64,000 nt of DNA from Candidatus Omnitrophota bacterium. Its GTDB lineage: Bacteria; Omnitrophota; Gorgyraeia; Zapsychrales; JANLHA01. Every line of letters starts with the position of its first letter. Within the stretch, counting starts at the first letter, position 1. The DNA lies in assembly GCA_020632535.1 (NCBI GenBank), contig JACKFJ010000003.1:38166-102165 (forward strand). Direction: 5' to 3'. The notes under the pieces are model-generated. The model ran no database searches, was not told where the DNA came from, and was given only the letters and a program-made list of their open reading frames with translations. The translations under genes and the position numbers were made by a program. This document shows positions 1,932 through 57,124 of the stretch, in pieces.

Positions 1932-2695
1932 TGCGATTATTAAGTTGGAATGTTAACGGTATTCGGGCGGGTGAAAAGAAGGGGTTTCTCAATTGGCTCG
2001 ACAAGGAATCACCCGACATTCTATGTTTACAAGAGACAAAATGTCATCCGTCGCAGCTGGGGGACAATTTACTTAAGCCTCAAGGTTATAAAACGTTTTG
2101 GTCAGCGGCTGAAAAAGCTGGATATAGTGGCGTAGCTGTTTATACCAAAAAAGAGCCGCGTATTGTCGAAAACGGTATCGGTGTCAAAGAGTTTGATTCT
2201 GAAGGCCGGACACTCATGTTGGAATACGATACATTTGTTCTCTTTAATATCTATTTTCCTAATGGCGGGGCTGGCAATAAGCGTGTGCCGTTTAAAATGT
2301 CATTTTATGATGCGTTTTTAAAGCGAGTAGAGAAACTTAAGAAAGCAGGAAAGAAAATTATTATTTGCGGCGATGTTAATACCGCGCATACCGAAATTGA
2401 TTTAGCGCGTCCCAAAGAAAATCAAAAAAATACGGGGTTTTTACCGGAAGAACGCGAGTGGATGACAAAATTTATTAATCACGGCTATGTTGATACATTC
2501 AGGCATTTTCAAAAAGACGGGGGACAATATAGCTGGTGGGATTATAAAACCGGCGCGCGAGCAAGAAATGTCGGTTGGCGCATTGATTATTTTTTTATTA
2601 GTGAAAATTTACTGCCGCAGTTAAAAAGTGGCTTTATATTGTCTGATGTTATGGGATCTGACCATTGTCCAGTGGGTATTGCCGTCAGCCTATAG
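1931..2695 (+). CDS. xth: Exodeoxyribonuclease III (AP endonuclease, EEP fold)
   Basis: MRLLSWNVNGIRA..., LCLQETK, GDVNTAHTEIDL and a SDHCPV C-terminus are collinear with the ExoIII/Xth family. Its start overlaps the upstream stop as TAATG. Confidence 0.9.
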   Translation: MRLLSWNVNGIRAGEKKGFLNWLDKESPDILCLQETKCHPSQLGDNLLKPQGYKTFWSAAEKAGYSGVAVYTKKEPRIVENGIGVKEFDSEGRTLMLEYDTFVLFNIYFPNGGAGNKRVPFKMSFYDAFLKRVEKLKKAGKKIIICGDVNTAHTEIDLARPKENQKNTGFLPEEREWMTKFINHGYVDTFRHFQKDGGQYSWWDYKTGARARNVGWRIDYFFISENLLPQLKSGFILSDVMGSDHCPVGIAVSL

Positions 2696-2697
2696 TG

Positions 2698-3160
2698 ACC
2701 ATTGCGAGCCGCGAAGAGCGCGAGTCCTTGTTAGAACTAGGAGCGAATAATAACACCCATTGCAAGGAGCAAAGCGACGCGGCAAAAATAGTGTCCATTG
2801 CGAGCCCCGCAGGGCGCGGCAATCTATTAGAATTAAAAGTGAAATGAAGAAACTTGATCACATCTGGCATTCTTTTAATGTATTTTGTCATTCCCGCAAT
2901 ATATTTTGTCATTTTCTCAATGTATTCTGTCATTCCCGTAATATATTTTGTCATTCCCGCGAAAGCGGGAATCCACTTTCAAAAAATGGATCCCCGATAA
3001 AAGCATTCGGGGATGACAATATTTTCGTCCATTGCGAGCCCAGAATTATAGCTCTCATTGCAAGGAGCGAAGCGACACGGCAATCATGGATAGATTGCTT
3101 CGTCACTACGTTCCTCGCAATGGGAATACGGATTGCCACGCCCTTCGGGCTCGCAATGGT
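2698..3160. repeat. Composite palindromic repeat block R1 (left bracket of cassette)
   Basis: Contains three cattgcgag-type modules, a conserved spacer, four 21-bp units, the hairpin attcccgc-gaaa-gcgggaat, the hairpin atccccga..tcggggat, and nested palindromes ccattgcgagccc (3029-3041) / gggctcgcaatgg (3147-3159). Positions 2698-3027 are near-identical to 12488-12770. Confidence 0.9.
2877..2960. repeat. Tandem array of four 21-bp units (aatRtattYtgtcattYYcgY)
   Basis: Units at 2877-2897, 2898-2918, 2919-2939 and 2940-2960 abut directly with no spacers. The last unit supplies the 5' arm of the hairpin that closes at 2965-2972. Confidence 0.9.
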
Positions 3161-3169
3161 TGAGATTTT

Positions 3170-5155
3170 TTACTGCGCAAGAATTTTAAGCAAAGCATCT
3201 TGGCTAGATTGGGCGCCTTTGTGATCTGGGTTGATTGTAAGAGCCATTTTGAAATCCTTAGCCGCTTCCTGATATCTTCCTGTTATCGCCAAAACATTTC
3301 CACGCCCATAATAAGCATCCGCGTACTTTGGATCAATGGAAAGTGCCTTATTATAATTTTTTAATGCCTCATTAAGCATTCTTTTCTGCTCAAAAACCAC
3401 CCCAAGATTTTTATAAATTTCACTATTTCGAGGATCAAGTGCTACCGACCGCTGAAAATCCGCCAATGCCAAGTCATATTGTTTTCTGATTCCATAAATC
3501 GATCCGCGCTTATTATAACCAATCGCCGACTGTGGATTAATCATGATAAGCTTTTGAAAATGCTCAAATGCACGATCAAATTCGCCCTTAGCCAAATAAA
3601 AATCACCGAGATTATAATGAGCTTCGGCATTCTGCGGATCGATTTCAAGCGCCTTGTTAAAACTCTCAGAAGCTTTTTCCAAATCATTATTCATCAAAAA
3701 AACAATTCCAAGATTATTATAAGCTTCATCAAAATTGGGTTTAAGTTCGATCGCTTTTAAAAAATCATTTAAAGCCGCATCCGTTTTTCCACTCATCCCA
3801 TACAATTGCCCGCGACTGTTATAACTTTCAGCGTATTTGGGATCAACAGCAATGGACTTATTAAAATCATTTAGTGCAAGTTGATATTGTCGTGCATCCT
3901 TATAAGCCTCGCCACGATTACCATAAGCCATCGCATTGTCGGGATAATATTTGATTTCGTGAGTCCAGAACGTGACGCTATTATTCCAGATTTTTGTTTG
4001 CGCAAACGTCTTTGAGCAGAGCATAAGAGCGATCAACACAAGAGACGCCGTTAGAGCTTTACGAAACACTTCTTTTTTGGAAATTTTCTTTAAAAGATAA
4101 TCGATGCAATATCCGACAAGAAAACAGATGCCAAGACACGGAAGATATAAAAACCGATCCGCTACGATACTTTTATCAACGACACTGTCATAACGAAAAA
4201 GAAAAAACATCGATAAAAAATAAAATCCCAAGGCAAACCAAAGCCAACGATTCCGGCGCCAAACAAAAGCCACAATTGCAATACCAATCAATAATGCAGC
4301 AGCACCAAGATAATGCGGATTCATTAACGAAATAGGTTGCGGCAAAGCATACATCGGGACTAACGGAGAAGGGAAAAAGAATTTAGAAATATAAAACATG
4401 GCGGTCCAAATCCAAATAATCGCGCCCGAGGAAATATTTTCACCGGGAACACGCGCGTTTAAAGAATACGTGATCCACGCAATCGAAACGATATAGAGAA
4501 AATGGGGAATTTTATCAATAATCATCCACTTATCAAACTGTCTCTTTTTAAGCCAGTCGCACACAAATAAAATCAAAGGCAAACTCAATGCCATCGGTTT
4601 CGCCAAAATACTCAAAAGCCCAAAGACAATAGTTAGGGCGTACGCAAGCATTTTTCGTGTCGACAAATATCGCCAATAAAAACAAAGCGCCAACATATAA
4701 AAAAACGCGTAGAGAACATCCTTGCGTTCCGTGACCCACGCCACCGACTCGACATGCATTGGATGAATTCCAAATAATAACGCAGCCACAAAAGCCGCTC
4801 GCAAAGGCAAATTGACTTGTAGGGCAAAATAAAAAACCAATGCGGTTACCGCAAGGTGCAGCAACAAATTATTCAAGTGATAAATAAAAGGATTATATTT
4901 AAAGAAATGATATTCAATGGCAAAGGAAAGGAATGTCAGGGGAACGTAAACCTTGCTAACAGTCGTTGTAAAGATTTCCTGAACATGTTGCGCGTCAAGA
5001 ACACGAATAGCCGCGTTCTCTAAAAGATGCGAATCATCGTCAAAATAAATAAAATTATTTCGCAATGTCGGCAAGTACGATAAAAAAGTGATGGCAAGGA
5101 TAATCAACAAAACCTTCACTGCATTTTTCGTCAAGAGATTATTACTTGTCATCAA
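3170..5155 (-). CDS. GT-C-type membrane glycosyltransferase with C-terminal TPR array (TMTC/DUF1736-like), paralog 1
   Basis: 661 aa. The first-loop motif is FIYFDDDSHLLEN. The DUF1736-like signature is HPMHVESVAWVTERKDVLY. It has about 10 TM helices followed by about 8 TPR units (AxxYxNRGxxY periodicity). Confidence 0.75.
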   Translation of the reverse strand: MMTSNNLLTKNAVKVLLIILAITFLSYLPTLRNNFIYFDDDSHLLENAAIRVLDAQHVQEIFTTTVSKVYVPLTFLSFAIEYHFFKYNPFIYHLNNLLLHLAVTALVFYFALQVNLPLRAAFVAALLFGIHPMHVESVAWVTERKDVLYAFFYMLALCFYWRYLSTRKMLAYALTIVFGLLSILAKPMALSLPLILFVCDWLKKRQFDKWMIIDKIPHFLYIVSIAWITYSLNARVPGENISSGAIIWIWTAMFYISKFFFPSPLVPMYALPQPISLMNPHYLGAAALLIGIAIVAFVWRRNRWLWFALGFYFLSMFFLFRYDSVVDKSIVADRFLYLPCLGICFLVGYCIDYLLKKISKKEVFRKALTASLVLIALMLCSKTFAQTKIWNNSVTFWTHEIKYYPDNAMAYGNRGEAYKDARQYQLALNDFNKSIAVDPKYAESYNSRGQLYGMSGKTDAALNDFLKAIELKPNFDEAYNNLGIVFLMNNDLEKASESFNKALEIDPQNAEAHYNLGDFYLAKGEFDRAFEHFQKLIMINPQSAIGYNKRGSIYGIRKQYDLALADFQRSVALDPRNSEIYKNLGVVFEQKRMLNEALKNYNKALSIDPKYADAYYGRGNVLAITGRYQEAAKDFKMALTINPDHKGAQSSQDALLKILAQ

Positions 5156-7037
5156 TACTCCGCTGTAAGTCTTGTACGAGTTTCATTTTTAAGTCATCAA
5201 TAAACTTTTCATCTATTTTATATCCAGCTTTTCGCGCGCGCTCCGCCGACATGAGCGACATATCATAAATTCCCAATTCATAAAAAACCTGCGAACAATT
5301 AAAATACGCATTTGCTGACACTTGCTGCCATTTAAAAACTTTTTGACAATCATTTCGTGCCTTGTCCGTTAATTTCATGTGTAAATAACATAGAGCACGA
5401 TAACTGTACGCGTCAGGATAATTGGGTGCCAACTTAATCGCTCGGGATAAGTCCGCCAAACCTTTATCAAATTCACCAAGACGAACATAAAGCATACCGC
5501 GATTCCCGTAACCTAGAACATAGTCGGGATCGGAAGCAATCGCGCGACTAAAATCTTCCAATGCCGCAGGTATTTTTCCCTCTTTTTCAAAAAGCAATCC
5601 ACGATTGTTATAAGCACCACTATAATTCGAATCCGATTCAATCGCTTTTGTATATTCTAAAATTGCTTCTTTTGTGTCCCCAGTTCGTTCATAAATCATG
5701 GCAAGATTCTTATGCACTTTGGAATAAGTCGGATTAATGCGCACAGATTCTTGATAGTCAGCTAAAGCAAGATCATATTGCTCACGACTAACATAAATTC
5801 GGCCACGATTATTGTATGCGACAAACGATTCTGGTGAATGCTTAACCGTATAATTCCAAAACGTAAAAGAATCCTTCCAAATCGAAATCTGTGAAAAAGT
5901 TTTGATCGACAAAGCCAAGGCCGCAACAATCAAGACCGTAATGATGACATTTTGTGCGACAACAGAAAGAAAGTTTTCCTTCCAGAGCCTTTCAATTACG
6001 TATCCGACAAAAAGACAAAACCCAACGCTGGGAAGATACATATAGCGGTCAGCAACAATTTGCATAAAACGTGGATAATCAAAGTTTAAAAGAAAGAAAA
6101 TCGACGAAATATACCATAACAGCGCGAAGCGAAACCAACGGTTTTCCCAAACAATTCCAACAAAAACACTGCCCGCGACTATAAGAACCGCAAACCAGTA
6201 TTGAAAATGAAGAATATTGGCTGGTAAAACCGGAACATAGACCGGAACGAGAAAAAAAGGCCAAAAGAATTTCTTAATATAAAATGCAGCGGCCCAAAAC
6301 CTTAACAATAGATTTGAATCAACCGTTTGTGAAAGGGAATTGGCACTCATTAAAAATGTTATAGCGGCTAAAGGAATAATAAATATGAAATATGGGATTT
6401 TATTAAAATAATCTTCATTTTTAAATTTCCCATTTAAGAACCAATCACACAATAACAATATCAATGGCAAACTTAAGGCCATGGGTTTTGCCAGCATACT
6501 GATAAATCCCATCGTAAGTGACAGCCCATAATATAACCATTTCCTTGTTTTTAAGAAACGCAAATACCACAAAACCGCGCCCAAATAAAACACACTATAA
6601 AGAACATCTTTGCGCTCAGTAGCCCAAGCCACGGACTCAACATGCATAGGATGAAGGCTAAAAATAAAGGCCGCGATGATTGATCCACTGTTTCCAAGTC
6701 CCAACGCTAAACTCAAGCGAAAGATTAAAAAAACCACAAGCAAATGCAAAAGAATATTATTTAGGTAGTAGAGCCATGGATTAAGGCCAACGAAATGATA
6801 TTCCACGGCAAATGATAAAATTGTTAAGGGAATATATGTTTTTTGAACTGTCGACGTCATAATGTTCCAGACGTTTTGTGGAGACACGGAACGGATTTGC
6901 GGATTATCAACAATATGAGTGTTATCGTCCCAATTGATAAATTCATGACGAAGTGTGGGAGAGTAGATCACAAAAGATACAAAAAGAAGCACGCCGATCA
7001 TAAGGAGATGTTGATGATCTTTGAGAAAAGTTTTCAT
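5142..7037 (-). CDS. GT-C/TPR (TMTC/DUF1736-like) glycosyltransferase, paralog 2 (most divergent)
   Basis: 631 aa with FINWDDNTHIVDN, HPMHVESVAWATERKDVLY and C-terminal TPRs. Its 3' end overlaps the paralog 1 start by 14 nt. Confidence 0.75.
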   Translation of the reverse strand: MKTFLKDHQHLLMIGVLLFVSFVIYSPTLRHEFINWDDNTHIVDNPQIRSVSPQNVWNIMTSTVQKTYIPLTILSFAVEYHFVGLNPWLYYLNNILLHLLVVFLIFRLSLALGLGNSGSIIAAFIFSLHPMHVESVAWATERKDVLYSVFYLGAVLWYLRFLKTRKWLYYGLSLTMGFISMLAKPMALSLPLILLLCDWFLNGKFKNEDYFNKIPYFIFIIPLAAITFLMSANSLSQTVDSNLLLRFWAAAFYIKKFFWPFFLVPVYVPVLPANILHFQYWFAVLIVAGSVFVGIVWENRWFRFALLWYISSIFFLLNFDYPRFMQIVADRYMYLPSVGFCLFVGYVIERLWKENFLSVVAQNVIITVLIVAALALSIKTFSQISIWKDSFTFWNYTVKHSPESFVAYNNRGRIYVSREQYDLALADYQESVRINPTYSKVHKNLAMIYERTGDTKEAILEYTKAIESDSNYSGAYNNRGLLFEKEGKIPAALEDFSRAIASDPDYVLGYGNRGMLYVRLGEFDKGLADLSRAIKLAPNYPDAYSYRALCYLHMKLTDKARNDCQKVFKWQQVSANAYFNCSQVFYELGIYDMSLMSAERARKAGYKIDEKFIDDLKMKLVQDLQRSIDDK

Positions 7038-7040
7038 TCG

Positions 7041-9038
7041 CTACTTCTTTTTTGCTTTTTCGCCATCGGTAAGAATTTTTATCAAAGCTCTTTGACTCAT
7101 TTTGGCTCCCTCATGATCTGGGTTAATTGCGAGAGCCGCGCTAAAATCTTTGGCCGCTTCTCCATACCGACCGGTAATGGCAAAGACATTGCCGCGACCA
7201 AAATACGCATCAACATATTTAGGATCAATAGCCAAAGCTTTGTTGTAATTTGCAATCGCTTCATTAAACATTTTTTTTTGCTCAAAAACAATACCACGGT
7301 TTTTATAAACCTCACTGTTTCGGGGATCCAACGCCAAGGAACGATTAAAATCTGCCAATGCTAAATCATATTGTTTTCGCATTCCCAAGATCATCCCGCG
7401 CTTGTTATATCCACCCGCGGAATTAGGATTAATCATTAAATGCCTCTGAAAAAATTGAAATGACTGATCATATTCACCGTTTAGAAAATGGAAATTCCCA
7501 AGATTATAAAGTGCCTCCGCATTTTGCGGATCCATTGCGAGGGCTTTTTGAAAATATGAAGCCGCTTGCGGCATATCGTTTTTCATGGCGTAAATAATGC
7601 CGATATTGTTATAAGTTTCATCAAAATTTGGTTTAAGTTCCAAAGTTTTTAGAAAATCCTGCAAAGCCTCATCGAGCTTGCCACTCATTCCCAGCATTTG
7701 CCCGCGGCTATTGTAACCTTCAGCGTAGTCCGGATCTACCTCTACAGCTTTATTAAAATCCGCGAAAGCCAATTGATATTTCCCGGCATCTTTGTAAGCT
7801 TCACCGCGATTGACAAGCGCCATGGCATTCGTCGGATAATATTTGAGTTCATGACTCCAAAATGGAATATTGGCACTCCAGATTTTTGTTTGCGCAAATG
7901 TCTTGCCACACAACATAAGGGCGATAAAGATAAGGAAGATAATAATCGCTGTTTCCCATTTCTTTTTGTTGGCAACTTTTTTAAATATAAGATCTATCCA
8001 ATACCCAAACAAAAAGCAAAACCCCACAGAAGGCAAATACATAAAGCGATTTGATGTCGGCGGTAAATACTTAATATCATCAAAACGAAAAAGAAAGAAA
8101 ATAGAGACTAAATAAAAAAGAAATGAAAATATTAATAATGTATTCCTACGAAAATGCCATAGGACAAATCCTAAAGAAATTGTGATCAGAAATGAAAAAG
8201 CAAATTCAGGATTAAAAATCGTAAACGGCTTTGGAAATTGCGTAAAAAGAACCAGATCAACAGGCCACACAAATTTTTGCAGATAAAACGCAAAGCACCA
8301 AACCCAGAACAATATGGCTTCGTATACATTTTGAATTGGATTGCGAGCATTCAGAAGATATGTCAACATCGCAATCGGAATAATATAAAGAAAATGTGGA
8401 ATCTTATCTAGGATCATCCATTTGTCAAACTGACGTTTTTTGTACCAATCGCAGACCAAAAAAATCAGTGGTAAACTCAGCGCCATGGATTTGGCTAAAA
8501 TGCTTAACACCCCAAATCCGATTGTTGCGATATATAAAATAATTTTTCGCGATGATAAATACTGCCAATAAAAGCAAACCGCCAACATATAAAAGAAGGA
8601 GTAGAGGACATCTTTGCGTTCGGTCACCCACGCCACCGATTCGACGTGCATTGGATGAATTCCAAACAATAATCCACCAATAAAGGCCGCGCGCAAGGGT
8701 AGGCCAATTTGCAAAGCAAAATAAAAGATCAAAGACGTGACAGCCAAATGCAAAAGAAGATTATTAAGGTGATACACAAAAGGATTGTATTTAAAGAAAT
8801 GATACTCGACAGCAAATGATAAAGTGGTTAAGGGAACATAAGTGGGGTTAAACGGCTTGGTAAAAATCTGCTTGATATGGTCAAAATCGAGGCCACGAAC
8901 AGCCACATTGTCATAGAGATGCAAATTGTCGTCATTGTTAAGAAAACCGCTCTTTAATGTCGGTAAATAAGACAAGAAAGTAGTCAACAAAATGATAGCA
9001 AGAAAACTCGCGACTTTTGTTTTATAGCCGTATGTCAT
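7041..9038 (-). CDS. GT-C/TPR (TMTC/DUF1736-like) glycosyltransferase, paralog 3
   Basis: 665 aa with FLNNDDNLHLYDN and HPMHVESVAWVTERKDVLY. The TPR region is nearly collinear with paralog 1. There is a GGA-rich SD upstream of the ATG at 9038. Confidence 0.75.
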   Translation of the reverse strand: MTYGYKTKVASFLAIILLTTFLSYLPTLKSGFLNNDDNLHLYDNVAVRGLDFDHIKQIFTKPFNPTYVPLTTLSFAVEYHFFKYNPFVYHLNNLLLHLAVTSLIFYFALQIGLPLRAAFIGGLLFGIHPMHVESVAWVTERKDVLYSFFYMLAVCFYWQYLSSRKIILYIATIGFGVLSILAKSMALSLPLIFLVCDWYKKRQFDKWMILDKIPHFLYIIPIAMLTYLLNARNPIQNVYEAILFWVWCFAFYLQKFVWPVDLVLFTQFPKPFTIFNPEFAFSFLITISLGFVLWHFRRNTLLIFSFLFYLVSIFFLFRFDDIKYLPPTSNRFMYLPSVGFCFLFGYWIDLIFKKVANKKKWETAIIIFLIFIALMLCGKTFAQTKIWSANIPFWSHELKYYPTNAMALVNRGEAYKDAGKYQLAFADFNKAVEVDPDYAEGYNSRGQMLGMSGKLDEALQDFLKTLELKPNFDETYNNIGIIYAMKNDMPQAASYFQKALAMDPQNAEALYNLGNFHFLNGEYDQSFQFFQRHLMINPNSAGGYNKRGMILGMRKQYDLALADFNRSLALDPRNSEVYKNRGIVFEQKKMFNEAIANYNKALAIDPKYVDAYFGRGNVFAITGRYGEAAKDFSAALAINPDHEGAKMSQRALIKILTDGEKAKKK

Positions 9039-9056
9039 AGGTAGTATCCTTGGTGA

Positions 9057-9084
9057 ATTGTAACGTAAAGTCCGCTACTTTCAA
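9057..9084 (-). promoter_or_regulatory. Candidate sigma70 promoter for the GT-C/TPR trio
   Basis: On the minus strand: TTGAAA (9084-9079), a 16-nt spacer, TACAAT (9062-9057), then an aagga SD and the ATG at 9038. Confidence 0.4.
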
Positions 9085-9107
9085 GCACTTTAAAAGACAA
9101 AAATGTG

Positions 9108-9136
9108 TTGCTAGAGTTGCAGTACGTGTTTATATT
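9108..9136 (+). promoter_or_regulatory. Candidate sigma70 promoter reading into repeat R2 and the propeller gene
   Basis: TTGCTA (9108-9113), a 17-nt spacer, TATATT (9131-9136). It lies back-to-back with the minus-strand promoter. Confidence 0.35.
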
Positions 9137-9196
9137 TATTGGTATCATGTATTTTGACCATTATGAAATTGGAACTGAAATAAAATGAAACAATCG

Positions 9197-9452
9197 AATA
9201 TAATCTGTCATTCCCGCTATATATTTTGTCATTTTCTCAATTTATTCTGTCATTCTCTCAATGTATTCTGTCATTCCCGCAATCTCTTAGCGGGAATCCA
9301 TAATTTGAAAAATAGATCCCCGATGACCAACGGAAATCCCCGGTTCGAGGGGATTAGAGTATTCGGGGATGACAATATTCTTGCCCATTGCGAGCCCCGC
9401 AGGGCGCGGCAATCTCGAATAGATTGCTTCGTCGCTACGTTCTTCGCAATGG
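9197..9452. repeat. Composite palindromic repeat block R2 (internal copy)
   Basis: Four 21-bp units (9197-9217, 9218-9238, 9239-9259, 9260-9280). Hairpin attcccgc(9273-9280)/gcgggaat(9290-9297). Nested hairpins atccccga..aatcccc-ggttcga-ggggatt..tcggggat. Then cattgcgagccccgcagggcgcggcaatc...agattgcttcgtcgctacgttcttcgcaatgg. The module order is the same as in R1 and R3. Confidence 0.9.
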
Positions 9453-12400
9453 GATTGATTTTTCTTTCCACCCCCGCGTTTGCCAATAATCTTGTCATAA
9501 GCAATGTCACCCTTGAAGACCGTAACGCGACGGCAAACACAATGGTCGTGCAGTTTAATATTTCATGGGATCACTCATGGCGAAAGAATGACGGTCGCCA
9601 TGACGCGGCGTGGGTGTTTGTAAAAATTAATAATTCCACTCCACCGTGGAAACATGGTTTACTTTATACCGCTGGAACCAATCCCACCAATACATCACCG
9701 GGCACCAATAGCGATCTTAAAATTGTCATTCCCTCAGATAAAGTCGGCGCGTTTATTTCACGAACAGCGACGGGTAATGGGACTTTTTCGTCACAAAAGG
9801 TTCGCCTTACTGTTGACTACGGCAGTAGTGGGATTGCAGACACGGATACCGTGCAAGTAAAAGTATTTGGTATCGAAATGGTCTACATTCCCGAAGGACC
9901 GTTTTATGTTGGAGAGAATAATACTAACGCCGATGAAACAGCTGCGAGTATTTATAAAGTATCTGATGCTGCTGTCATAGTTTTTAATTCTAGTGGAACT
10001 TTCCAATGGGCCAAGCGTTTAGGTGGAACAAATAATGATCTTGCAAGGGCTGTCGCTTCAGGTAGCAATTCCAATATTATCGTCACCGGTGATGCTTACG
10101 GAAATTTTGATTTAAATGGAGATGGTGATACCGCTGATACCAATGAATCGACAGGTGGAGTATATGCAGTAAATGATGCGTATTTATCAGTTTTTAATTC
10201 TAGCGGGACTTTTCAATGGTCCAAGCGTGTAGGTGGAGCTGCTGGTGACTATGGGCAAGCAGTGGCAGTTGACCACAATAACAATATTATTTTCAGTGGG
10301 TATTGTCAAAACAATGTTGATTTAAACGGCGACGGTGATACCGCTGATAGCAATGAAACCGGCGGCGGTGTATATGGAAACAGCCAAGACGGATTTATTT
10401 CGGTTTTTAATTCTAGTGGGACTTTTCAATGGTCAGAGCGGTTAGGAGGAACTACTGTTGATCAGGCAAAGTCTGTCGCAACAGATAGTAGTAATAATAT
10501 CATTGTTAGCGGATCCGTTACTAATAATGCTGACTTAAACGGCGATGGTGATACCAGTGATGCTAATGAATCTGGGGGAGGAGTTTATGAAGTTGCTGAT
10601 GCGTTTATATCCGTTTTGAATTCCAGTGGGACTTTTCAATGGTCTAAGCGTTTTGGGGGAACTGGTAGTGATTCTGGAGAATCTGTTGCAACGGATAGCA
10701 ATAAGAATGTTATCATTACCGGCGCTGTCAACGGTAATGCCGACTTAAACGGAGATGCTGATACCGCCGATTCGAACGAAACAGGGAGTACAGGTGTATA
10801 TGGAAACAGTGATGTGTTCATCTCTGTTTTTAATTCTAGTGGGACTTTTCAATGGTCTAAGCGTTTAGGTGGAACTTTTACAGATAGCGGAAATGCGCTC
10901 GCAGTGGATAGCAATAATAATATCATCGCAGGAGGGTATGTTGACCGTAATGCTGATTTAAACGGAGATGCAGATACCGCCGATGCTAATGAAACTGGTA
11001 CTACAGGGGTATATTCAGGTACCGATGGATTTATCTCTGTTTTTAATTCAGCGGGGACTTTCCAGTGGTCTAAACGTCTTGGGGGCTCAGGTACTGATTA
11101 TGTATATGCTGTTGCGGTCGACAGTAATAATAATATTCTGGTTAGCGGGTACGTGACTGGTAATGCCGACTTGAACGGAGATGCGGATACATCGGATACA
11201 AATGAAACCGGCGGTGGAGTATATGGAAGTATTGATGCCTTTATCTCTGTTTTTGATTCGAGCGGAACTTTCCAATGGGCGAAACGTTTGGGAGGTAATA
11301 GTAGTGATTATGGATATAGTGTTGCAGTAGACAGAAATAATAATATTCTCTTAGGTTGGAGGTTTACCGGCAACGCCGACTTCAATGGCGACGCGATTAT
11401 TTATCCGACATATCCGTTTTATACCACAGGCGCGGATGATGCCGCCGTCCAAATTACAACCAGCGGCCAAGCTTTGACCGTTGTGACCAATTCCAATGAT
11501 GATATTGATACTTCACCTATCACTGTCACAGGACTTGCCGGTGTAACAGGCAATACATCTTGGCCTAATGGTTATTCTGCTTTTTACATGATGAAATATG
11601 AAATGACACAAGGGCAGTATGTCGACTTTCTCAATACTTTATCGAGAGTTCAGCAAAGCACACGTGTTGAAGCCACGGTCACCGGCAACACCATTGCTAA
11701 TTATTATGTCATGTCAAATGGAACATCCGTTTCAGCTCGTAATGGCATACGTGCTCCCGCATCTGGTAATGGAACAAGTCCTACGCCCATTGTTTTTGGA
11801 AATGACTTAAGCGCAAATGGTGTATTTAATGAAAGTAATGATGGACAGAATATCGCGATGAATGTTTTGAGTTGGGGAGATTTATTGGCTTACGCGGATT
11901 GGGCAGGTTTGCGGCCTTTTACCGAACTTGAATTTGAAAAAACAGCTCGCGGCCCTAATAGCGCCGTAAGTAATGAATATGCTTGGGGGACATCTGTGGT
12001 TACCATTGCATCCACAATTCTTGATGATGGTCGAAATACTGAGAGAGTCAGTGAGTCTGGAGAAGGACTCACGACACTTGAGAATTATACAGCCGGTCCT
12101 TTAAGAGTTGGCTTTGCCGCGACCAATGCAACGAATCGTATCAGCGCAGGCGCGGGATATTATGGAAATATGGATCTTTCTGGTAATGCCGGAGAAATGG
12201 CTGTCACTTTAGGTAATAGCGTAGGCCGATCATTTACGGGAACACACGGGGACGGAACATTAACGAGCACTGCGAGTTTTGAAGGCAATGCGACCAATAC
12301 GGATTGGCCGGGTATCAATGGGACAACAAATAAAGGGGTAACGGGCGCCAGCGGTTCGGGATCCCGAGGGAGCACTTGGTTTGGTCAAATATATCCCTTG

Positions 12401-12487
12401 ACAAGTCGCCTTGAAGCTTCATTAACGGACAGTTCTCGCTCTAGTTTTGGGAATAACGGCGGTCGACTTGCCCGCACCGCGCCGTAA
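9449..12487 (+). CDS. Secreted/surface protein: N-terminal beta-sandwich, then a seven-blade SBBP-like beta-propeller with Ca-loop motifs, flanked on both sides by FGE-sulfatase (SUMF1-like) domain segments
   Basis: Seven ~70-aa repeats (VFNSSGTFQW[AS]KRLGG..D....VA.D..NNII..G......DLNGD[GA]DT[AS]D.NE[ST]GG.VY). MVYIPEGPFYVG lies before the repeats. YMMKYEMTQGQYVDFLN...LAYADWAGLRPFTELEFEKTARGP...GGRLAR lies after them. The frame is open from 9185, but 9185-9448 is repeat R2. The start is uncertain: the ATG at 9449 gives MGLIFLSTPAFA/NN. Confidence 0.7.
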   Translation: MGLIFLSTPAFANNLVISNVTLEDRNATANTMVVQFNISWDHSWRKNDGRHDAAWVFVKINNSTPPWKHGLLYTAGTNPTNTSPGTNSDLKIVIPSDKVGAFISRTATGNGTFSSQKVRLTVDYGSSGIADTDTVQVKVFGIEMVYIPEGPFYVGENNTNADETAASIYKVSDAAVIVFNSSGTFQWAKRLGGTNNDLARAVASGSNSNIIVTGDAYGNFDLNGDGDTADTNESTGGVYAVNDAYLSVFNSSGTFQWSKRVGGAAGDYGQAVAVDHNNNIIFSGYCQNNVDLNGDGDTADSNETGGGVYGNSQDGFISVFNSSGTFQWSERLGGTTVDQAKSVATDSSNNIIVSGSVTNNADLNGDGDTSDANESGGGVYEVADAFISVLNSSGTFQWSKRFGGTGSDSGESVATDSNKNVIITGAVNGNADLNGDADTADSNETGSTGVYGNSDVFISVFNSSGTFQWSKRLGGTFTDSGNALAVDSNNNIIAGGYVDRNADLNGDADTADANETGTTGVYSGTDGFISVFNSAGTFQWSKRLGGSGTDYVYAVAVDSNNNILVSGYVTGNADLNGDADTSDTNETGGGVYGSIDAFISVFDSSGTFQWAKRLGGNSSDYGYSVAVDRNNNILLGWRFTGNADFNGDAIIYPTYPFYTTGADDAAVQITTSGQALTVVTNSNDDIDTSPITVTGLAGVTGNTSWPNGYSAFYMMKYEMTQGQYVDFLNTLSRVQQSTRVEATVTGNTIANYYVMSNGTSVSARNGIRAPASGNGTSPTPIVFGNDLSANGVFNESNDGQNIAMNVLSWGDLLAYADWAGLRPFTELEFEKTARGPNSAVSNEYAWGTSVVTIASTILDDGRNTERVSESGEGLTTLENYTAGPLRVGFAATNATNRISAGAGYYGNMDLSGNAGEMAVTLGNSVGRSFTGTHGDGTLTSTASFEGNATNTDWPGINGTTNKGVTGASGSGSRGSTWFGQIYPLTSRLEASLTDSSRSSFGNNGGRLARTAP
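9980..11400 (+). repeat. Intragenic tandem repeat, seven units of 210-213 bp (propeller blades)
   Basis: The motif gtttt(t/g)(a/g)attc... recurs at 9980, 10190, 10403, 10613, 10826, 11039 and 11249. Nucleotide similarity between units is high. Confidence 0.9.
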
Positions 12488-12797
12488 ACCATTGCGAGCC
12501 GCGAAGAGCGCGAGTCCTTGTTAGGACGAGGAGCTAAGCGACGTGGCAAAAATAGTGTCCATTGCGAGCCCCGCAGGGCGCGGCAATCTATTAGGATTAA
12601 AAGTGAAATGAAAAAACTTGATCACATCTGGCATTCTTTTAATGTATTTTGTCATTCCCGCAATATATTTTGTCATTTTCTCAATGTATTCTGTCATTCC
12701 CGCGAAAGCGGGAATCCACTTTCAAAAAATGGATCCCCGATGAGAGCATTCGGGGATGACAATATTTTCGCTAACGTTCGCAATGGGAGTGATTTTT
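12488..12797. repeat. Composite palindromic repeat block R3 (right bracket of cassette)
   Basis: Positions 12488-12770 are near-identical to 2698-3027. It carries three 21-bp units (12641-12661, 12662-12682, 12683-12703). The tail acgttcgcaatgggagtgattttt resembles the R2 tail acgttcttcgcaatgggattgattttt. Confidence 0.9.
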
Positions 12798-12826
12798 AGT
12801 ATTAACAAAAAAGACAGGAGAAAGAC

Positions 12827-13372
12827 ATGAAAAAAACTGTAATTTTTTTATTGATAGGAATTTTCTTAGGATTGATTGCTCTGGCACAAAATAATGTCTT
12901 TGCTCAAGACAAAACCTTAAGTGCGATTGCTAATATGAGTAGCACGATGCCAGATTCCGCAATCACTGGAACTGTGAAATTAACCGAAACATCGGACGGT
13001 CTTAAAGTTACCGCAGATATTAAGGGCATACCTTATAAAGGGCCACTTGGATTTCATATTCACGAAGTTGGAAATTGCAGTGATATGGGTAAAGCTGCCG
13101 GTGGCCATTTTAATCCTGACAAGGTTATGCATGGAATGTTAATGAAAGACGGAGCCGAACACGCCCACATTGGCGACATGGGTAATATTGTCGTCGATGC
13201 GACTGGTCATGCCAAACTTGAGGTAACTCTGCCCGATGTTGGTTTAGAAAACTGGCGCTATAATGTCGGAGGTCTTTCCATTATTTTGCATGAAAAGGCT
13301 GATGATTTTGGCCAACCAACAGGCAATGCCGGCGGACGTATCGCCTGCGGCATTATTGAAGTACAAAAGTAA
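12827..13372 (+). CDS. sodC: Periplasmic Cu,Zn superoxide dismutase
   Basis: Signal peptide, then GFHIHEVGNC, GGHFNP, HIGDMGN and a LHEKADD...GNAGGRIACGII C-terminus. There is an aggag SD. Confidence 0.9.
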   Translation: MKKTVIFLLIGIFLGLIALAQNNVFAQDKTLSAIANMSSTMPDSAITGTVKLTETSDGLKVTADIKGIPYKGPLGFHIHEVGNCSDMGKAAGGHFNPDKVMHGMLMKDGAEHAHIGDMGNIVVDATGHAKLEVTLPDVGLENWRYNVGGLSIILHEKADDFGQPTGNAGGRIACGIIEVQK

Positions 13373-13407
13373 TACCGTCGCGAGCCCTTTTTATAGGAGT
13401 ATAAATT

Positions 13408-13947
13408 ATGTTTTCAATCACGAACAGTGCTCTCTTGGTTATAGACGTGCAGGGAAACCTTGCACAACGTATGCACAAAGCTGAGCATTTGCTTGAACGC
13501 ATCTGCCTTTGTATCAAAGCCGCAAAGATTATGGAATTACCGATCATTTATACTGAACAAATTCCCGCAAAATTGGGCAAAACCACATCGACAGTTGCCG
13601 AACTTTTACGTGATATAATTCCAATCGAAAAAACGACTTTCAGTTGCTGGGAAAATCCTGATTTTGTCCAAAAGATACAAAGTCTAAAGCGATCGCAAAT
13701 TTTTGTTGTTGGAATCGAAGCGCATGTTTGTATTTTTCAAACTGTTTCGGATTTATTGAAAGCCAATTTTAAAGTGCAAATTGTTACTGACGCGGTTTCG
13801 TCGCGAATAGAAGACAATAAAACAATTGCGCTAACACGTATGAAAGATTTGGGCGCTATTTTAACATCATCAGAGATGATGGCGACCGAGTTGATGCGTA
13901 CCGCGGAATATAAATATTTTAAGGAGATCCTTTCACTTATCAAATAA
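13408..13947 (+). CDS. Isochorismatase-family cysteine hydrolase
   Basis: ALLVIDVQ near the N-terminus and VVGIEAHVCI (catalytic Cys context). 179 aa. Confidence 0.7.
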   Translation: MFSITNSALLVIDVQGNLAQRMHKAEHLLERICLCIKAAKIMELPIIYTEQIPAKLGKTTSTVAELLRDIIPIEKTTFSCWENPDFVQKIQSLKRSQIFVVGIEAHVCIFQTVSDLLKANFKVQIVTDAVSSRIEDNKTIALTRMKDLGAILTSSEMMATELMRTAEYKYFKEILSLIK

Positions 13948-13958
13948 CCATTATTAGT

Positions 13959-14032
13959 GTCATTCCCGCAATCCTTTAGCGGGAATCCATAATTAAAAAT
14001 ATGGATCCCCGATAGGAACCTTCGGGGATGAC
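13959..14032. repeat. Palindromic repeat locus R4 (two hairpin modules)
   Basis: gtcattcccgc-aatccttta-gcgggaatcc (13959-13988) and ggatccccga-taggaacc-ttcggggatgac (14003-14032). Confidence 0.9.
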
Positions 14033-14049
14033 GTCAGGGGGGATATTTC

Positions 14050-16017
14050 GTGCCAAACTCCAAACAGAAAAATCATGCAAATGTTTCGACACTTTTAGAC
14101 GAATCCCGTATTTTTTCACCTTCCAAAAAATTTCTCTCAAACGTGCAAATCAAGGATGATTCATTAATTAAAAAAGCCGCGCAAGATCGTCTAGCTTTCT
14201 GGGCGCAGTGGGCCAGCAAATTGACATGGAGTAAGCCATGGGACAAAATTCTCGATTGGACGGACGCGCCTTTTGCCAAATGGTTTGTCGGTGGCAAACT
14301 CAATGCATGCGTTAATTGTGTTGATCGCCATATAAAAGCTGGTAAAGGTCAAAAAAAAGCATTTATTTGGGTTGGTGAAAATAGCGACCAGCGGACATTA
14401 ACGTACGCTGATGTTTTTGCTGAAGTCAACAAATTAGCAAATGTTATCAAAGATTTGGGTATTACAAAGGGTGACCGCGTAGCCATTTATCTGCCGATGG
14501 TTCCGGAAGCAATGATCAGCATGCTAGCGTGCGCTCGAATCGGCGCCGTCCATACCGTTGTTTTTGGCGGCTTTAGTGCCGATTCTTTGCAAAGTCGCAT
14601 CAATGATTGTGAAGCGAAATTATTAATTACCGCCGATGGTGGTTATCGTCGTGGAAACGTTTTGCTCCTAAAAGAAATCGCGGATAAAGCAATCACAGGT
14701 TGTCCATCAGTTAAAAATGTTCTTGTCGTGCAAAGAACAAAATCATCTGTCAAAATGATTTCGCAACGCGATCACTGGTATCATGAACTGTTAGCAAAAG
14801 CCAAACCCCAATGTCCACCTGAAGAAATGGATTCAGAAGATCTACTTTTTATTTTATACACATCTGGCACAACAGGAAAACCAAAAGGAATTATTCACAC
14901 CACCGGCGGATATATGACTGGAGTTGCGGCGACGACAAAATGGGTTTTTGATTTACAAGACGAGGATATCTTTTGGTGTACTGCCGACGTAGGATGGATT
15001 ACCGGCCACAGTTATATTGTTTACGGTCCCATGGCCAATGGGGCAACACAAGTCATATACGAAGGCTCGCCGGATTTTCCGCAACGCAATCGCTTTTGGA
15101 AAATCATTGAAGAGCACAAAGTAAGCATTTTTTACACTGCACCGACAGCGATTCGCGCTTTCATGAAGTGGGGTATCGAGTGGCCGAAAGGGTGCGATCT
15201 TTCCAGTCTTCGACTTTTAGGCAGTGTTGGCGAACCGATCAACCCAGAAGCATGGGTTTGGTATCACGAACACATCGGCCGCAGCAATTGTCCTATCGTC
15301 GACACATGGTGGCAGACAGAAACAGGATGTATTTTGATTTCACCACTGGCTGGCATTACCGATCTTAAGCCCGGCTCGGCAACAAAATCGCTTCCGGGTA
15401 TTGACGTAAAAATTATTAATGAAGACGCGAAAGAAATAAAAGAAGGCGGCGGCTTTTTGGTTTTGACGAGTCCGTGGCCTTCGATGCTGCGCGGAATTTA
15501 TGGCGATCCTAAGCGTTATAAAGAAACATACTGGAGCAAATGGTCAGAAAATATTTATTTTACCGGTGATGGTGCCAAGAAGGACACGGATGGATATTTT
15601 TGGCTTTTGGGACGAGTTGATGACATTATGTTGGTCGCGGGACATAATATTTCAACCATGGAAGTTGAAAGTGCGCTCGTTGATCATCCTGCGGTTGCCG
15701 AAGCCGCGGTTATTGGCGCGACTGATGAAATCAAAGGACAAGCCATTGTCGCTTTTGTCACATTAAAAGAAGGAAAACCTTCTCTTGATAGAATCGAAGA
15801 TATTCTAAAGGCGCATGTCGCAAATAAAATTGGCGCGATTGCCCGTCCACGACAGATCATTTTAACTGCGGACCTTCCCAAGACCCGCAGCGGAAAAATT
15901 ATGCGTCGCCTTTTACGTGACGTAGCCGAAGGTCGCGCTCTTGGTGACGTGACAACTTTGGCGGATGTAGAAGTTGTGGAAGCTTTGAAAAAAAAATACG
16001 AACATGTTGAGTCATAA
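14050..16017 (+). CDS. acs: Acetyl-CoA synthetase (AMP-forming)
   Basis: GTG start. YTSGTTGKPKG AMP-binding motif, WWQTETG, and C-terminal PKTRSGKIMRRLLR carrying the regulatory lysine (K616, codon 15895-15897). Confidence 0.92.
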   Translation: MPNSKQKNHANVSTLLDESRIFSPSKKFLSNVQIKDDSLIKKAAQDRLAFWAQWASKLTWSKPWDKILDWTDAPFAKWFVGGKLNACVNCVDRHIKAGKGQKKAFIWVGENSDQRTLTYADVFAEVNKLANVIKDLGITKGDRVAIYLPMVPEAMISMLACARIGAVHTVVFGGFSADSLQSRINDCEAKLLITADGGYRRGNVLLLKEIADKAITGCPSVKNVLVVQRTKSSVKMISQRDHWYHELLAKAKPQCPPEEMDSEDLLFILYTSGTTGKPKGIIHTTGGYMTGVAATTKWVFDLQDEDIFWCTADVGWITGHSYIVYGPMANGATQVIYEGSPDFPQRNRFWKIIEEHKVSIFYTAPTAIRAFMKWGIEWPKGCDLSSLRLLGSVGEPINPEAWVWYHEHIGRSNCPIVDTWWQTETGCILISPLAGITDLKPGSATKSLPGIDVKIINEDAKEIKEGGGFLVLTSPWPSMLRGIYGDPKRYKETYWSKWSENIYFTGDGAKKDTDGYFWLLGRVDDIMLVAGHNISTMEVESALVDHPAVAEAAVIGATDEIKGQAIVAFVTLKEGKPSLDRIEDILKAHVANKIGAIARPRQIILTADLPKTRSGKIMRRLLRDVAEGRALGDVTTLADVEVVEALKKKYEHVES

Positions 16018-20548: not shown

Positions 20549-20577
20549 GTCATCCCCGAAAGCTTTTATCGGGGATC
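20549..20577. repeat. Palindromic repeat locus R5 (single module, inverted orientation)
   Basis: gtcatccccga-aagctttta-tcggggatc is the reverse orientation of the ggatccccga..tcggggatgac module. Confidence 0.85.
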
Positions 20578-20594
20578 TCAACAAAACTAATATT

Positions 20595-21356
20595 ATGGAT
20601 AAAAAATTAAATCTCAAATTAATGATTTGGCGACAAAAAGGCCCAAAAGACAAAGGTGCTTTTGAAATCTATAAAGTCAAGGACATCGACACGTCCATGT
20701 CTTTTCTCGAAATGCTTGACGTTCTAAACGAGGAACTCACTCACGAGGGTAAAGAGCCGATCGCTTTTGACCATGATTGCCGAGAAGGTATTTGCGGAGC
20801 ATGCGCCGCTGTGGTCAATGGCAAAGCGCATGGCAAGCTCAAAGGCACAACCCTTTGCCAACTTCATATGCGTCATTTTGAGAATAATGAAACCATTGTC
20901 ATCGAACCTTGGCGTGCTAAAGCGTTTCCCGTTATCAAAGATCTGATCGTGGATCGAAGCGCGTTTGATCGCATCATTTCCGCGGGTGGATATATTTCAG
21001 CTAAAACCGGATCAGCGCCAGATGCAAACGCAATTCCTATTCCAAAAGAAAATGTTGATCTTGCCATGGATGCGGCCGCCTGCATCGGCTGTGGTGCTTG
21101 TGTCGCCGCCTGTCCAAACGCGTCTGCCATGCTTTTTGTGGGCGCGAAAGTTAGTCATCTTATCCATTTGCCACAAGGAAAAGTCGAAGGAAAATCGCGC
21201 GCTTACGATATGGTTAGACAAATGGACAAAGAAGGCTTTGGTAATTGCTCAAACGAATATGAGTGTGAAGCCGCTTGCCCCAAGAATATCAGTGTATCCA
21301 CGATTGCTCGTTTGAATCGCGAATTTATGTTCTCCAAGCTCACCCGCAAAACCTAG
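20595..21356 (+). CDS. sdhB: Succinate dehydrogenase/fumarate reductase iron-sulfur subunit
   Basis: CREGICGAC (2Fe-2S), [12 protein letters not shown] (4Fe-4S), CEAACPK (3Fe-4S). I prefer the ATG at 20595 because the track start (GTG at 20547) lies inside repeat R5. Confidence 0.9.
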
Positions 21357-34870: not shown

Positions 34871-34952
34871 ACCCTGTACGAGGAATAAAGTGAGGAAGCA
34901 TTCTCGAGGGTGACAAAATAGATTGCTTCGTCGGTGACGCTCCTCGCAATGG
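34871..34952. repeat. Palindromic repeat locus R6 (degenerate cattgcgag-type module)
   Basis: agattgcttcgtcggtgacgctcctcgcaatgg (34920-34952), preceded by a decayed partner arm ccctgtacgaggaataaagtgaggaagc. Confidence 0.7.
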
Positions 34953-57067: not shown

Positions 57068-57070
57068 ATA

Positions 57071-57124
57071 TCTTTCCCGCAATCTTTTGATGGATCCCCA
57101 ACAAGAACATTCGGGAATGACAAT
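57071..57124. repeat. Palindromic repeat locus R8 (fused, degenerate modules)
   Basis: tctttcccgcaatcttttgatggatccccaacaagaacattcgggaatgacaat combines halves of the two small hairpin modules. Confidence 0.7.

Follow-up and report, generated by a model that had tools for sequence, protein, structure and literature searches.

One-sided arrays of hairpin half-sites in intergenic repeat mosaics of an Omnitrophota genome

Three short tandem arrays lie within 10 kb of chromosome in the window analysed here, a 64-kb stretch from a Candidatus Omnitrophota metagenome-assembled genome (MAG). Tandem Repeats Finder places period-21 arrays at 2877-2960 (4.0 copies, score 119), 9197-9283 (4.1 copies, score 104) and 12641-12703 (3.0 copies, score 91), in agreement with an earlier sequence-only reading that had listed four, four and three abutting 21-bp units at these sites. 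The repeated module is a ~10-nt G-poor spacer followed by the 5' arm of a hairpin, (T)GTCATTCCCGC. All arrays read on the plus strand. Array 1 (2877-2960) has units at 2877-2897, 2898-2918, 2919-2939 and 2940-2960, each an A/T-rich spacer of about 10 nt plus the arm GTCATTCCCGC; units 1 and 4 are intact, while unit 3 ends in CCCGT and unit 2 in TTCTC. Array 2 (9197-9280; units 9197-9217, 9218-9238, 9239-9259 and 9260-9280) also has intact units 1 and 4, with degenerate units 2 (TTCTC) and 3 (TCTCTC). Array 3 (12641-12703; units 12641-12661, 12662-12682 and 12683-12703) equals array 1 less one unit. Unit 2 of all three arrays is GTCATTTTCTC, in which the arm is not kept. The 5' arm had been described as present in every unit; arms are indeed repeated, but unit 2 of every array and unit 3 of the first two are altered.

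Each array ends in its sole complete hairpin, GTCATTCCCGC-loop-GCGGGAATCC. The window holds 13 matches to the half-site pattern TGTCATTYYCKY, every one of them on the plus strand from 2886 to 13969 (shuffles, 0.23). The 3' arm GCGGGAATCC occurs four times, once after the last unit of each array, as the sequence-only reading had noticed, and once at 13979 in a fourth hairpin copy that has no array. Hairpin A1 (2949-2976, plus strand; TGTCATTCCCGC-GAAA-GCGGGAATCCAC) takes the last unit of array 1 as its 5' arm. Hairpin A3 (12692-12719, plus strand) is identical to it, and hairpin A2 (9269-9301, plus strand) has a 9-nt loop (AATCTCTTA) and shares 89% identity with the copy at 13958 that has no array. 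The 8-bp stem of hairpin A, with its 4- or 9-nt loop, is the centroid structure, with Z-scores of -3.1 to -4.3 against shuffles. Mutually exclusive hairpins had been proposed for the whole arrays. Alternatives are possible for intact units, but because of the degenerate units just two or three per array could pair an 8-bp stem with the lone 3' arm, and the centroid DNA fold pairs that arm with the last arm of the array.

A single MAG assembly underlies the 4/4/3 unit counts. Independent short-read assemblies of this organism in Logan (SRR12358676) break precisely at the repeats (end of L243, start of L244): one contig terminates in CCATTGCGAGCCGCGAAGAGCGCGAGTCC and the other begins inside the 3' arm (GAATCCACTTTC), so the MAG counts need caution. 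We sought unit-number polymorphism in other assemblies; look-ups with SodC and TPR found nothing on record, and the two Logan contigs end within the repeats.

We assign hairpin A, by published sequence definition, to a known repeat, NTS/SRM, an identity that the sequence-only reading had missed. The Neisseria Transformation Sequence (NTS) has the consensus CGTCATTCCCGCGMAVGCGGGAATCYRG and includes the classical dRS3 repeat; NTS and the wider 'Ssn-related motifs' (SRM) are bound as single-stranded DNA (ssDNA) hairpins by SsnA, a small GIY-YIG nuclease (PMC11893778). Ssn cuts 5' of the bound hairpin, and the oligonucleotide numbering (20-nt product, G26, C49) puts the SsnA cut ~5 nt 5' of GTC. 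Cutting by SsnA depends on GTC, and binding on the C that follows the stem; the loop can be dispensed with, arbitrary insertions at its position are tolerated, and the two halves may sit on separate oligonucleotides. Binding and cutting are known only for four Ssn homologues, from N. meningitidis, N. elongata, N. wadsworthii and Wolbachia pipientis (all PMC11893778). Genes for Ssn are of the cd10448 type, with a single GIY-YIG domain, and the repeats often flank them. The SRM search pattern HGTCWYN(0-2)YYVSBRHN(0-5)WNVSBRGN(0-2)RNCYNB has exactly four matches in the window, at 2949-2976, 9269-9301, 12692-12719 and 13958-13990 (shuffles, 0.16). A1 and A3 are the NTS consensus with two substitutions, at its first and last bases, and fit the dRS3 core ATTCCC-N8-GGGAAT; A2 and the fourth copy, A4, have the 9-nt loop and fit the SRM pattern only. 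An Rfam search of the whole window at the gathering threshold gave no match.

Hairpin A is one half of a doublet. An inverted hairpin B (GGATCCCCGA-loop-TCGGGGATGAC) comes 13-15 nt after the complete hairpin A, and the pair folds as a REPIN-like three-way junction with the closing stem GTCAT/ATGAC. Hairpin B1 lies at 2988-3017 on the minus strand, which reads GTCATCCCCGAAT-loop-ATCGGGGATCC; B2 lies at 9315-9373 and B3, the partner of A3, at 12731-12760, both likewise inverted on the minus strand. Block 4 (13958-14032, plus strand) is a doublet without an array, made up of A4 (13958-13990) and inverted B4 (14003-14032), and serves as the unexpanded reference state. In an alignment of the four blocks the A/B doublet is the common core, with the arrays on its outer left side. 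The stack sits on the outer 5' side of a REPIN-like doublet, in intergenic mosaic blocks that were copied to three genome sites. Block 1 (2698-3165, plus strand) comprises CATTGCGAG-type palindromes, array 1 and the A1/B1 doublet, and its segment 2698-3027 recurs at 12488-12770 in block 3 over ~330 nt at 87-98% identity. With 98% identity over 174 nt, the two blocks differ by a single complete 21-nt unit, which supports the slippage-type change in copy number that the sequence-only reading had suggested.

One-sided half-site arrays are widespread across many bacterial phyla. A genome scan for two arms 21 nt apart returned at least 120 loci, and a metagenome scan that let the gap vary from 1 to 30 nt, unbiased for period, returned at least 120 more, so that both together gave at least 240. 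The genome scan reached Omnitrophota, Nitrospirales, Patescibacteria, Rickettsiales, Legionellales, Planctomycetota, Dehalococcoidia, Clostridia and others, complete chromosomes included. Among the matches listed in the unbiased scan, periods of 17, 18, 19, 20, 21, 22, 23 and 24 nt were seen 7, 12, 12, 32, 43, 13, 10 and 10 times. None measured 13-16 nt, so spacers are at least 6 nt long, and those of at least 30 nt were tandem complete hairpins. The spread makes 21 nt a mode rather than a fixed helical phase. Arrays across loci hold 2-12 units with spacers of 6-13 nt. Among the loci listed, 141 of 192 arrays have a complete hairpin at their end, and in none of 328 cases does a 3' arm follow an internal unit. 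An IMG/VR sample chosen for complete hairpins only had an upstream arm copy (at most one mismatch) at 11 of 170 hairpins (~6.5%), against a chance expectation of ~0.02 from base frequencies rather than shuffling. Six apparent downstream right-arm copies in that sample all belong to one Neisseria-type repeat family. An inverted partner lies within 120 nt of 41% of arrays and of 41% of solo hairpins at these other loci. We found no description of such arrays in searches for the sequence, for dRS3 with 'tandem' and for follow-up work on Ssn, in a library that is incomplete, and the word 'tandem' is absent from the Ssn paper (PMC11893778); one-sided arrays of 5' half-sites are apparently undescribed.

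In one repeat family, on four Neisseria-like IMG/VR contigs (L260, L264, L332 and L333), a conserved right-arm-like GCGGCAGGAATC lies 23-24 nt downstream of the complete hairpin; it is the sole downstream half-site-like feature seen. In L024, L036, L102, L109 and L014, GTCATTCCCGC half-sites precede a terminal hairpin of another stem family (for example GTCATTCCGA...TCGGAATC), and these upstream arms could not fully pair with the 3' arm present.

The arrays are polarised. Among the loci listed, adjacent ATTCCCGC core pairs with a GTC head number 298, plus 17 with a mutated head in the outer unit, against a single right-arm-type pair. A single element can carry mirror-image arrays on both of its outer sides, and because these stand at both ends of the same ssn unit, replication direction is excluded as the cause of polarity. 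The usual layout is arm-(spacer-arm)n, then loop and 3' arm, with a sharp right boundary at the arm/loop junction. Between units, arms are 96% and spacers 62% identical (n=86, p=2e-13). Spacers are C/T-rich with 2-9% G, and T stands at position -1 in 89%. Mean arm mismatches rise from 0.42 beside the hairpin to 1.2-2.0 further out. Unit number changes in steps of one whole unit, and slippage between the 11-nt direct repeats is supported by the one-unit difference between blocks 1 and 3 and by the 81% identity of adjacent spacers within arrays of at least three units.

Three more specific ideas about the arrays were tried and dropped. A loss confined to the GTC head of the outermost unit gave way to general distal decay only. 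A simple duplication of flank plus arm as the founding event was rejected for most arrays, since in young arrays (those with identical inner spacers) the flank preceding the first arm usually matches by no more than 0-2 nt. Derivation of spacers from the loop was rejected because G is enriched (39%) only at the first spacer base and the rest is pyrimidine-rich, unlike loops.

Equivalent arrays elsewhere stand beside small GIY-YIG genes. In fetched loci, single-domain GIY-YIG genes of ~95-100 aa (PF01541, E ~1e-16) are flanked by inverted hairpin copies, with half-site arrays on the outer side of those hairpins. Such genes adjoin equivalent arrays in 7-10 fetched loci, another Omnitrophota genome included, and in Candidatus Omnitrophus magneticus the array ends 14 nt before the GIY-YIG start codon. 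Across 240 fetched loci, GIY-YIG is the sole recurrent family of open reading frames (ORFs) with hairpins on both sides, accounting for 7 of 22. The small protein family is very large and well conserved, and PDB and NCBIfam searches gave a generic UPF0213/GIY-YIG match only. By size, domain and repeat context, these proteins appear to be Ssn-like.

On balance we favour a reading in which each array stacks copies of the first half of an Ssn-type hairpin repeat; mosaic mobile blocks carry the arrays, slippage changes their length, and their polarity follows the side on which Ssn acts. Once two arms are present, replication slippage between the 11-nt direct repeats would add or remove units. Polarity would follow the one asymmetric feature of the hairpin, its GTC-marked 5' side, where Ssn cuts ~5 nt upstream. 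In ssDNA the lone 3' arm could pair with any intact 5' arm, and because Ssn tolerates loop insertions and split halves, each intact unit could direct an alternative cut, giving a 21-nt ladder. The spacer minimum of 6 nt and mode of 9-10 nt would roughly match the minimal substrate in the length of its 5' portion, which has 5 nt up to the cut and 2 or more in addition; spacers of at least 6 nt would leave room for a cut site 5 nt upstream. The array may be a natural counterpart of the artificial first-half concatemer in the Ssn paper. The arrays of the window are themselves partly degenerate copies in ordinary intergenic repeat mosaics.

Several observations weigh against this reading. Cleavage, binding and single-strandedness of the arrays are predictions, and the conservation of arms may be due to recent copying from master elements instead of to function. 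The cut mapped for SsnA, 5 nt 5' of GTC, falls off the unit boundary. The flank that precedes the first arm mostly bears no relation to the spacers, a search within 150 nt for a spacer source found no excess of direct or reverse-complement matches and only a weak upstream signal, and slippage leaves the origin of the first extra arm unexplained. Within the 64-kb window, a motif scan and Pfam searches of small ORFs found no ssn or GIY-YIG gene, one or two arms per array are too degenerate to pair, and the spacers are A/T-rich rather than C/T-rich as elsewhere. Finally, Bertels & Rainey (bioRxiv 10.1101/2021.07.10.451892) place ATTCCCGCGCAGGCGGGAATC doublets of Neisseria among the REPINs that belong to a Group 2 RAYT; RAYTs are REP-associated tyrosine transposases (Y1 HUH).

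An alternative is a neutral by-product, in which replication slippage or repair errors beside a stable hairpin leave functionless minisatellites that hitchhike with a selfish repeat and have no role in cleavage or mobility. We regard that as a real possibility, if an unlikely one. Distal arms decay (0.42 to 1.2-2.0 mismatches), units 2 and 3 of the window are degenerate, only ~6.5% of complete hairpins in an unbiased sample carry an extra arm, periods range over 17-24 nt, and block 3 shows whole-unit loss relative to block 1. If structure-driven slippage acted at a near-perfect palindrome, however, both arms should be hit alike, and the observed polarity is 298:1, with replication direction excluded by the mirror-image arrays at both ends of the same ssn unit. 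Nor would neutrality predict arms conserved at 96% beside spacers at 62%, or spacers that avoid G and never fall below 6 nt. The arrays might at the other end be a selected working part of an Ssn/NTS element, natural concatemers of first-half substrates whose arms pair in turn with the 3' arm, so that one hairpin would program a ladder of cuts ~20 nt apart at its outer edge. The orphan arm, one nuclease footprint 5' of the hairpin, would then be a scar of the way in which these pan-bacterial hairpins copy themselves. This we consider doubtful.

In a further account, a RAYT rather than Ssn mobilises the doublets and the arrays are its by-products. Like REPINs, and in line with the treatment of the Neisseria doublets, the window elements are inverted doublets within ~130 bp in all four blocks. 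The account is nonetheless improbable, because GIY-YIG is the only recurrent family among hairpin-flanked ORFs in the 240 fetched loci, where no transposase-like cluster appears, because specific binding and cutting of the hairpin were shown experimentally for Ssn (PMC11893778), and because no RAYT-like ORF lies beside the window blocks or anywhere in the window. The sequence-only reading had instead seen iteron- or centromere-like geometry, with identical sites on one DNA face. Such phased sites, of iteron, centromere or operator type, would seat a duplex-binding protein on one side of the helix. Units in the window are exactly 21 bp and directly abutting, and block 2 occupies a divergent promoter region (9038-9449). 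Against these stand the lack of an adjacent rep, par or regulator gene, the occurrence of similar arrays in convergent, divergent and co-directional gaps, the unfixed period of the family (17-24 nt), spacer sequences that vary by locus, promoter-like sites not clearly enriched (39 vs 32 ± 4.8 in shuffles) and a block 3 that is dispensable in a relative; neither such a function nor conserved helical phasing is supported for these intergenic mosaic repeats, and we give such binding sites very little credence. Least credible, to the point of being negligible, is that the arrays encode the heptad N-V/I-F-C-H-S/F-R/L. That frame is open across the three blocks, as had been pointed out, and in frame with the mechanical ORFs 2760-3224, 9185-12487 and 12518-12799, but coding is not supported. 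A stop-free 21-nt unit is automatically open in such a frame, periods not divisible by three occur about as often as 21 nt, those of 19, 20, 22 and 23 nt being common, Pfam gave no match to the array ORFs, and block 3 is missing in the relative. The large gene moreover has an in-frame ATG at 9449, 3' of the repeats, followed by a short hydrophobic stretch that by eye may be a signal peptide.

Compared with known systems, the arrays are closest to NTS/SRM and Ssn (PMC11893778). They share a matching hairpin sequence, an intergenic location, an orientation marked by the GTC head and by the C that follows the stem, inverted hairpins around small GIY-YIG genes in related loci and an occurrence in many phyla. 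They differ in that the published elements are single complete hairpins and clusters, whereas here the 5' half alone is iterated 2-12 times, the window has no ssn gene and cleavage is only predicted. The 'HemiF' concatemer of that paper (PMC11893778, Fig. 6c) is likewise a run of first-half NTS modules, which Ssn cuts into unit lengths only when the second half is supplied. The natural arrays add one second half in cis. HemiF, however, is an in vitro product of rolling-circle amplification, and the same cutting of natural arrays would be an analogy only.

Other repeat systems match in part. Neisseria dRS3/NIME arrays likewise form intergenic mosaics, with ATTCCC-N8-GGGAAT hairpins interspersed among other families of short repeats; they lie beside variable genes and differ between relatives. 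NIMEs, however, consist of complete dRS3 hairpins with RS elements of 19-214 bp in between and have been described as specific to Neisseria (PMC1797815), whereas the window arrays, in an Omnitrophota genome, have half-sites abutting at 21 nt rather than a dRS3-RS-dRS3 order. REP/REPIN/BIME elements with RAYT, too, are doublets of inverted hairpins. They share the intergenic and mosaic setting and a selfish or domesticated nature, and may likewise be handled as ssDNA hairpins, with another enzyme family and another head sequence. One-sided half-site arrays have not, to our knowledge, been described for REPINs. Plasmid iterons and parS-type centromeres resemble the arrays as tandem direct repeats of ~17-22 bp; unlike these arrays, they adjoin rep or par genes, keep a fixed sequence and period per replicon and are bound as duplex, none of which is seen here.

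Few short repeats are as widely shared among bacteria as NTS/SRM hairpins, and both their spread and the role of Ssn outside Neisseria are questions raised by PMC11893778. One-sided expansion on the side that Ssn cuts would offer testable points: a cut ladder, ssn-dependent gain and loss of units, and a founding event. The arrays also break short-read assemblies and create open frames (the N-V/I-F-C-H-S/F-R/L ORFs), so recognising them aids annotation. For the window itself, the finding takes away the suggestion of a replication origin or centromere.

Read on the opposite strand, arrays at many loci (for example L068 and L028) turn their C/T-rich spacers into purine-rich tracts that stand 7-8 nt ahead of the ATG in GGGAATGAC. 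Tract and ATG together resemble a ribosome-binding site and start codon, and a 21-nt period would keep the frame open. MAG annotations contain repetitive hypothetical proteins that may derive from such opposite-strand array frames.

All blocks are intergenic, in convergent, divergent and co-directional contexts. Block 1 is flanked by a convergent Exo_endo_phos (Exo III-like) gene at 1931-2695 and by a minus-strand TPR gene at 3170-5155, and block 2 lies in the divergent promoter region between 9038 and 9449. The neighbours of the blocks comprise that Exo_endo_phos gene, three TPR paralogues, an SBBP/FGE-sulfatase gene, SodC, isochorismatase and acetyl-CoA synthetase (Acs); Pfam searches of neighbouring ORFs found no rep, par or regulator gene beside them. 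The nearest relative found is an Omnitrophota genome with the same gene order and a SodC 82% identical. Its SodC locus has 14 nt in place of block 3, and its neighbouring gaps hold different palindromes, which marks the blocks as insertions of mobile repeats. Around 54 doublets there is no clear target-site duplication (direct flank identity 0.28 vs 0.23 in controls; inverted flank identity 0.36 vs 0.32). A promoter and terminator scan of 2600-14100 gave counts near those of shuffles (promoter-like sites, 39 vs 32 ± 4.8) and did not flag the arrays.

Other palindromes share the mosaics. CATTGCGAG-type palindromes occur in blocks 1-3 and 17 times in the window, against 2.5 expected. Block 3 (12488-12790, plus strand) is bounded by inverted CCATTGCGAGC ... 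GTTCGCAATGGG arms. A second palindromic family (CCATTGCGAGC...GCTCGCAATGG) lies at 2698-2830, 3028-3165, 9384-9455, 12488-12600 and 12772-12790, and also near 34943, 49865, 53742, 54402 and 61904, with 17 copies in total against 2.5 expected; since its inverted arms bound block 3, the NTS array and doublet there are nested within that family. The related GTCATTGCGAGG family adjoins the GIY-YIG gene in locus L199, where it forms tandem 5' half-sites with a 30-nt period. Nested in the loop of B2 is a small hairpin, ATCCCCGGTTCGAGGGGAT (9336-9354), which blocks 1, 3 and 4 lack; this 30-nt insertion suggests that further hairpins can insert into hairpin loops. The doublet also has a decayed copy at 57070-57122, between two genes of the cytochrome-oxidase region, and a solitary hairpin, GTCATCCCCGA-loop-TCGGGGATC, lies at 20549-20577, just 5' of a gene starting near 20596. 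Among the genes beside the blocks, the three tandem TPR paralogues (3170-9038, minus strand) share 72-74% DNA identity over 300-nt stretches, and the SBBP/FGE-sulfatase gene contains seven ~210-nt repeats (9946-11421).

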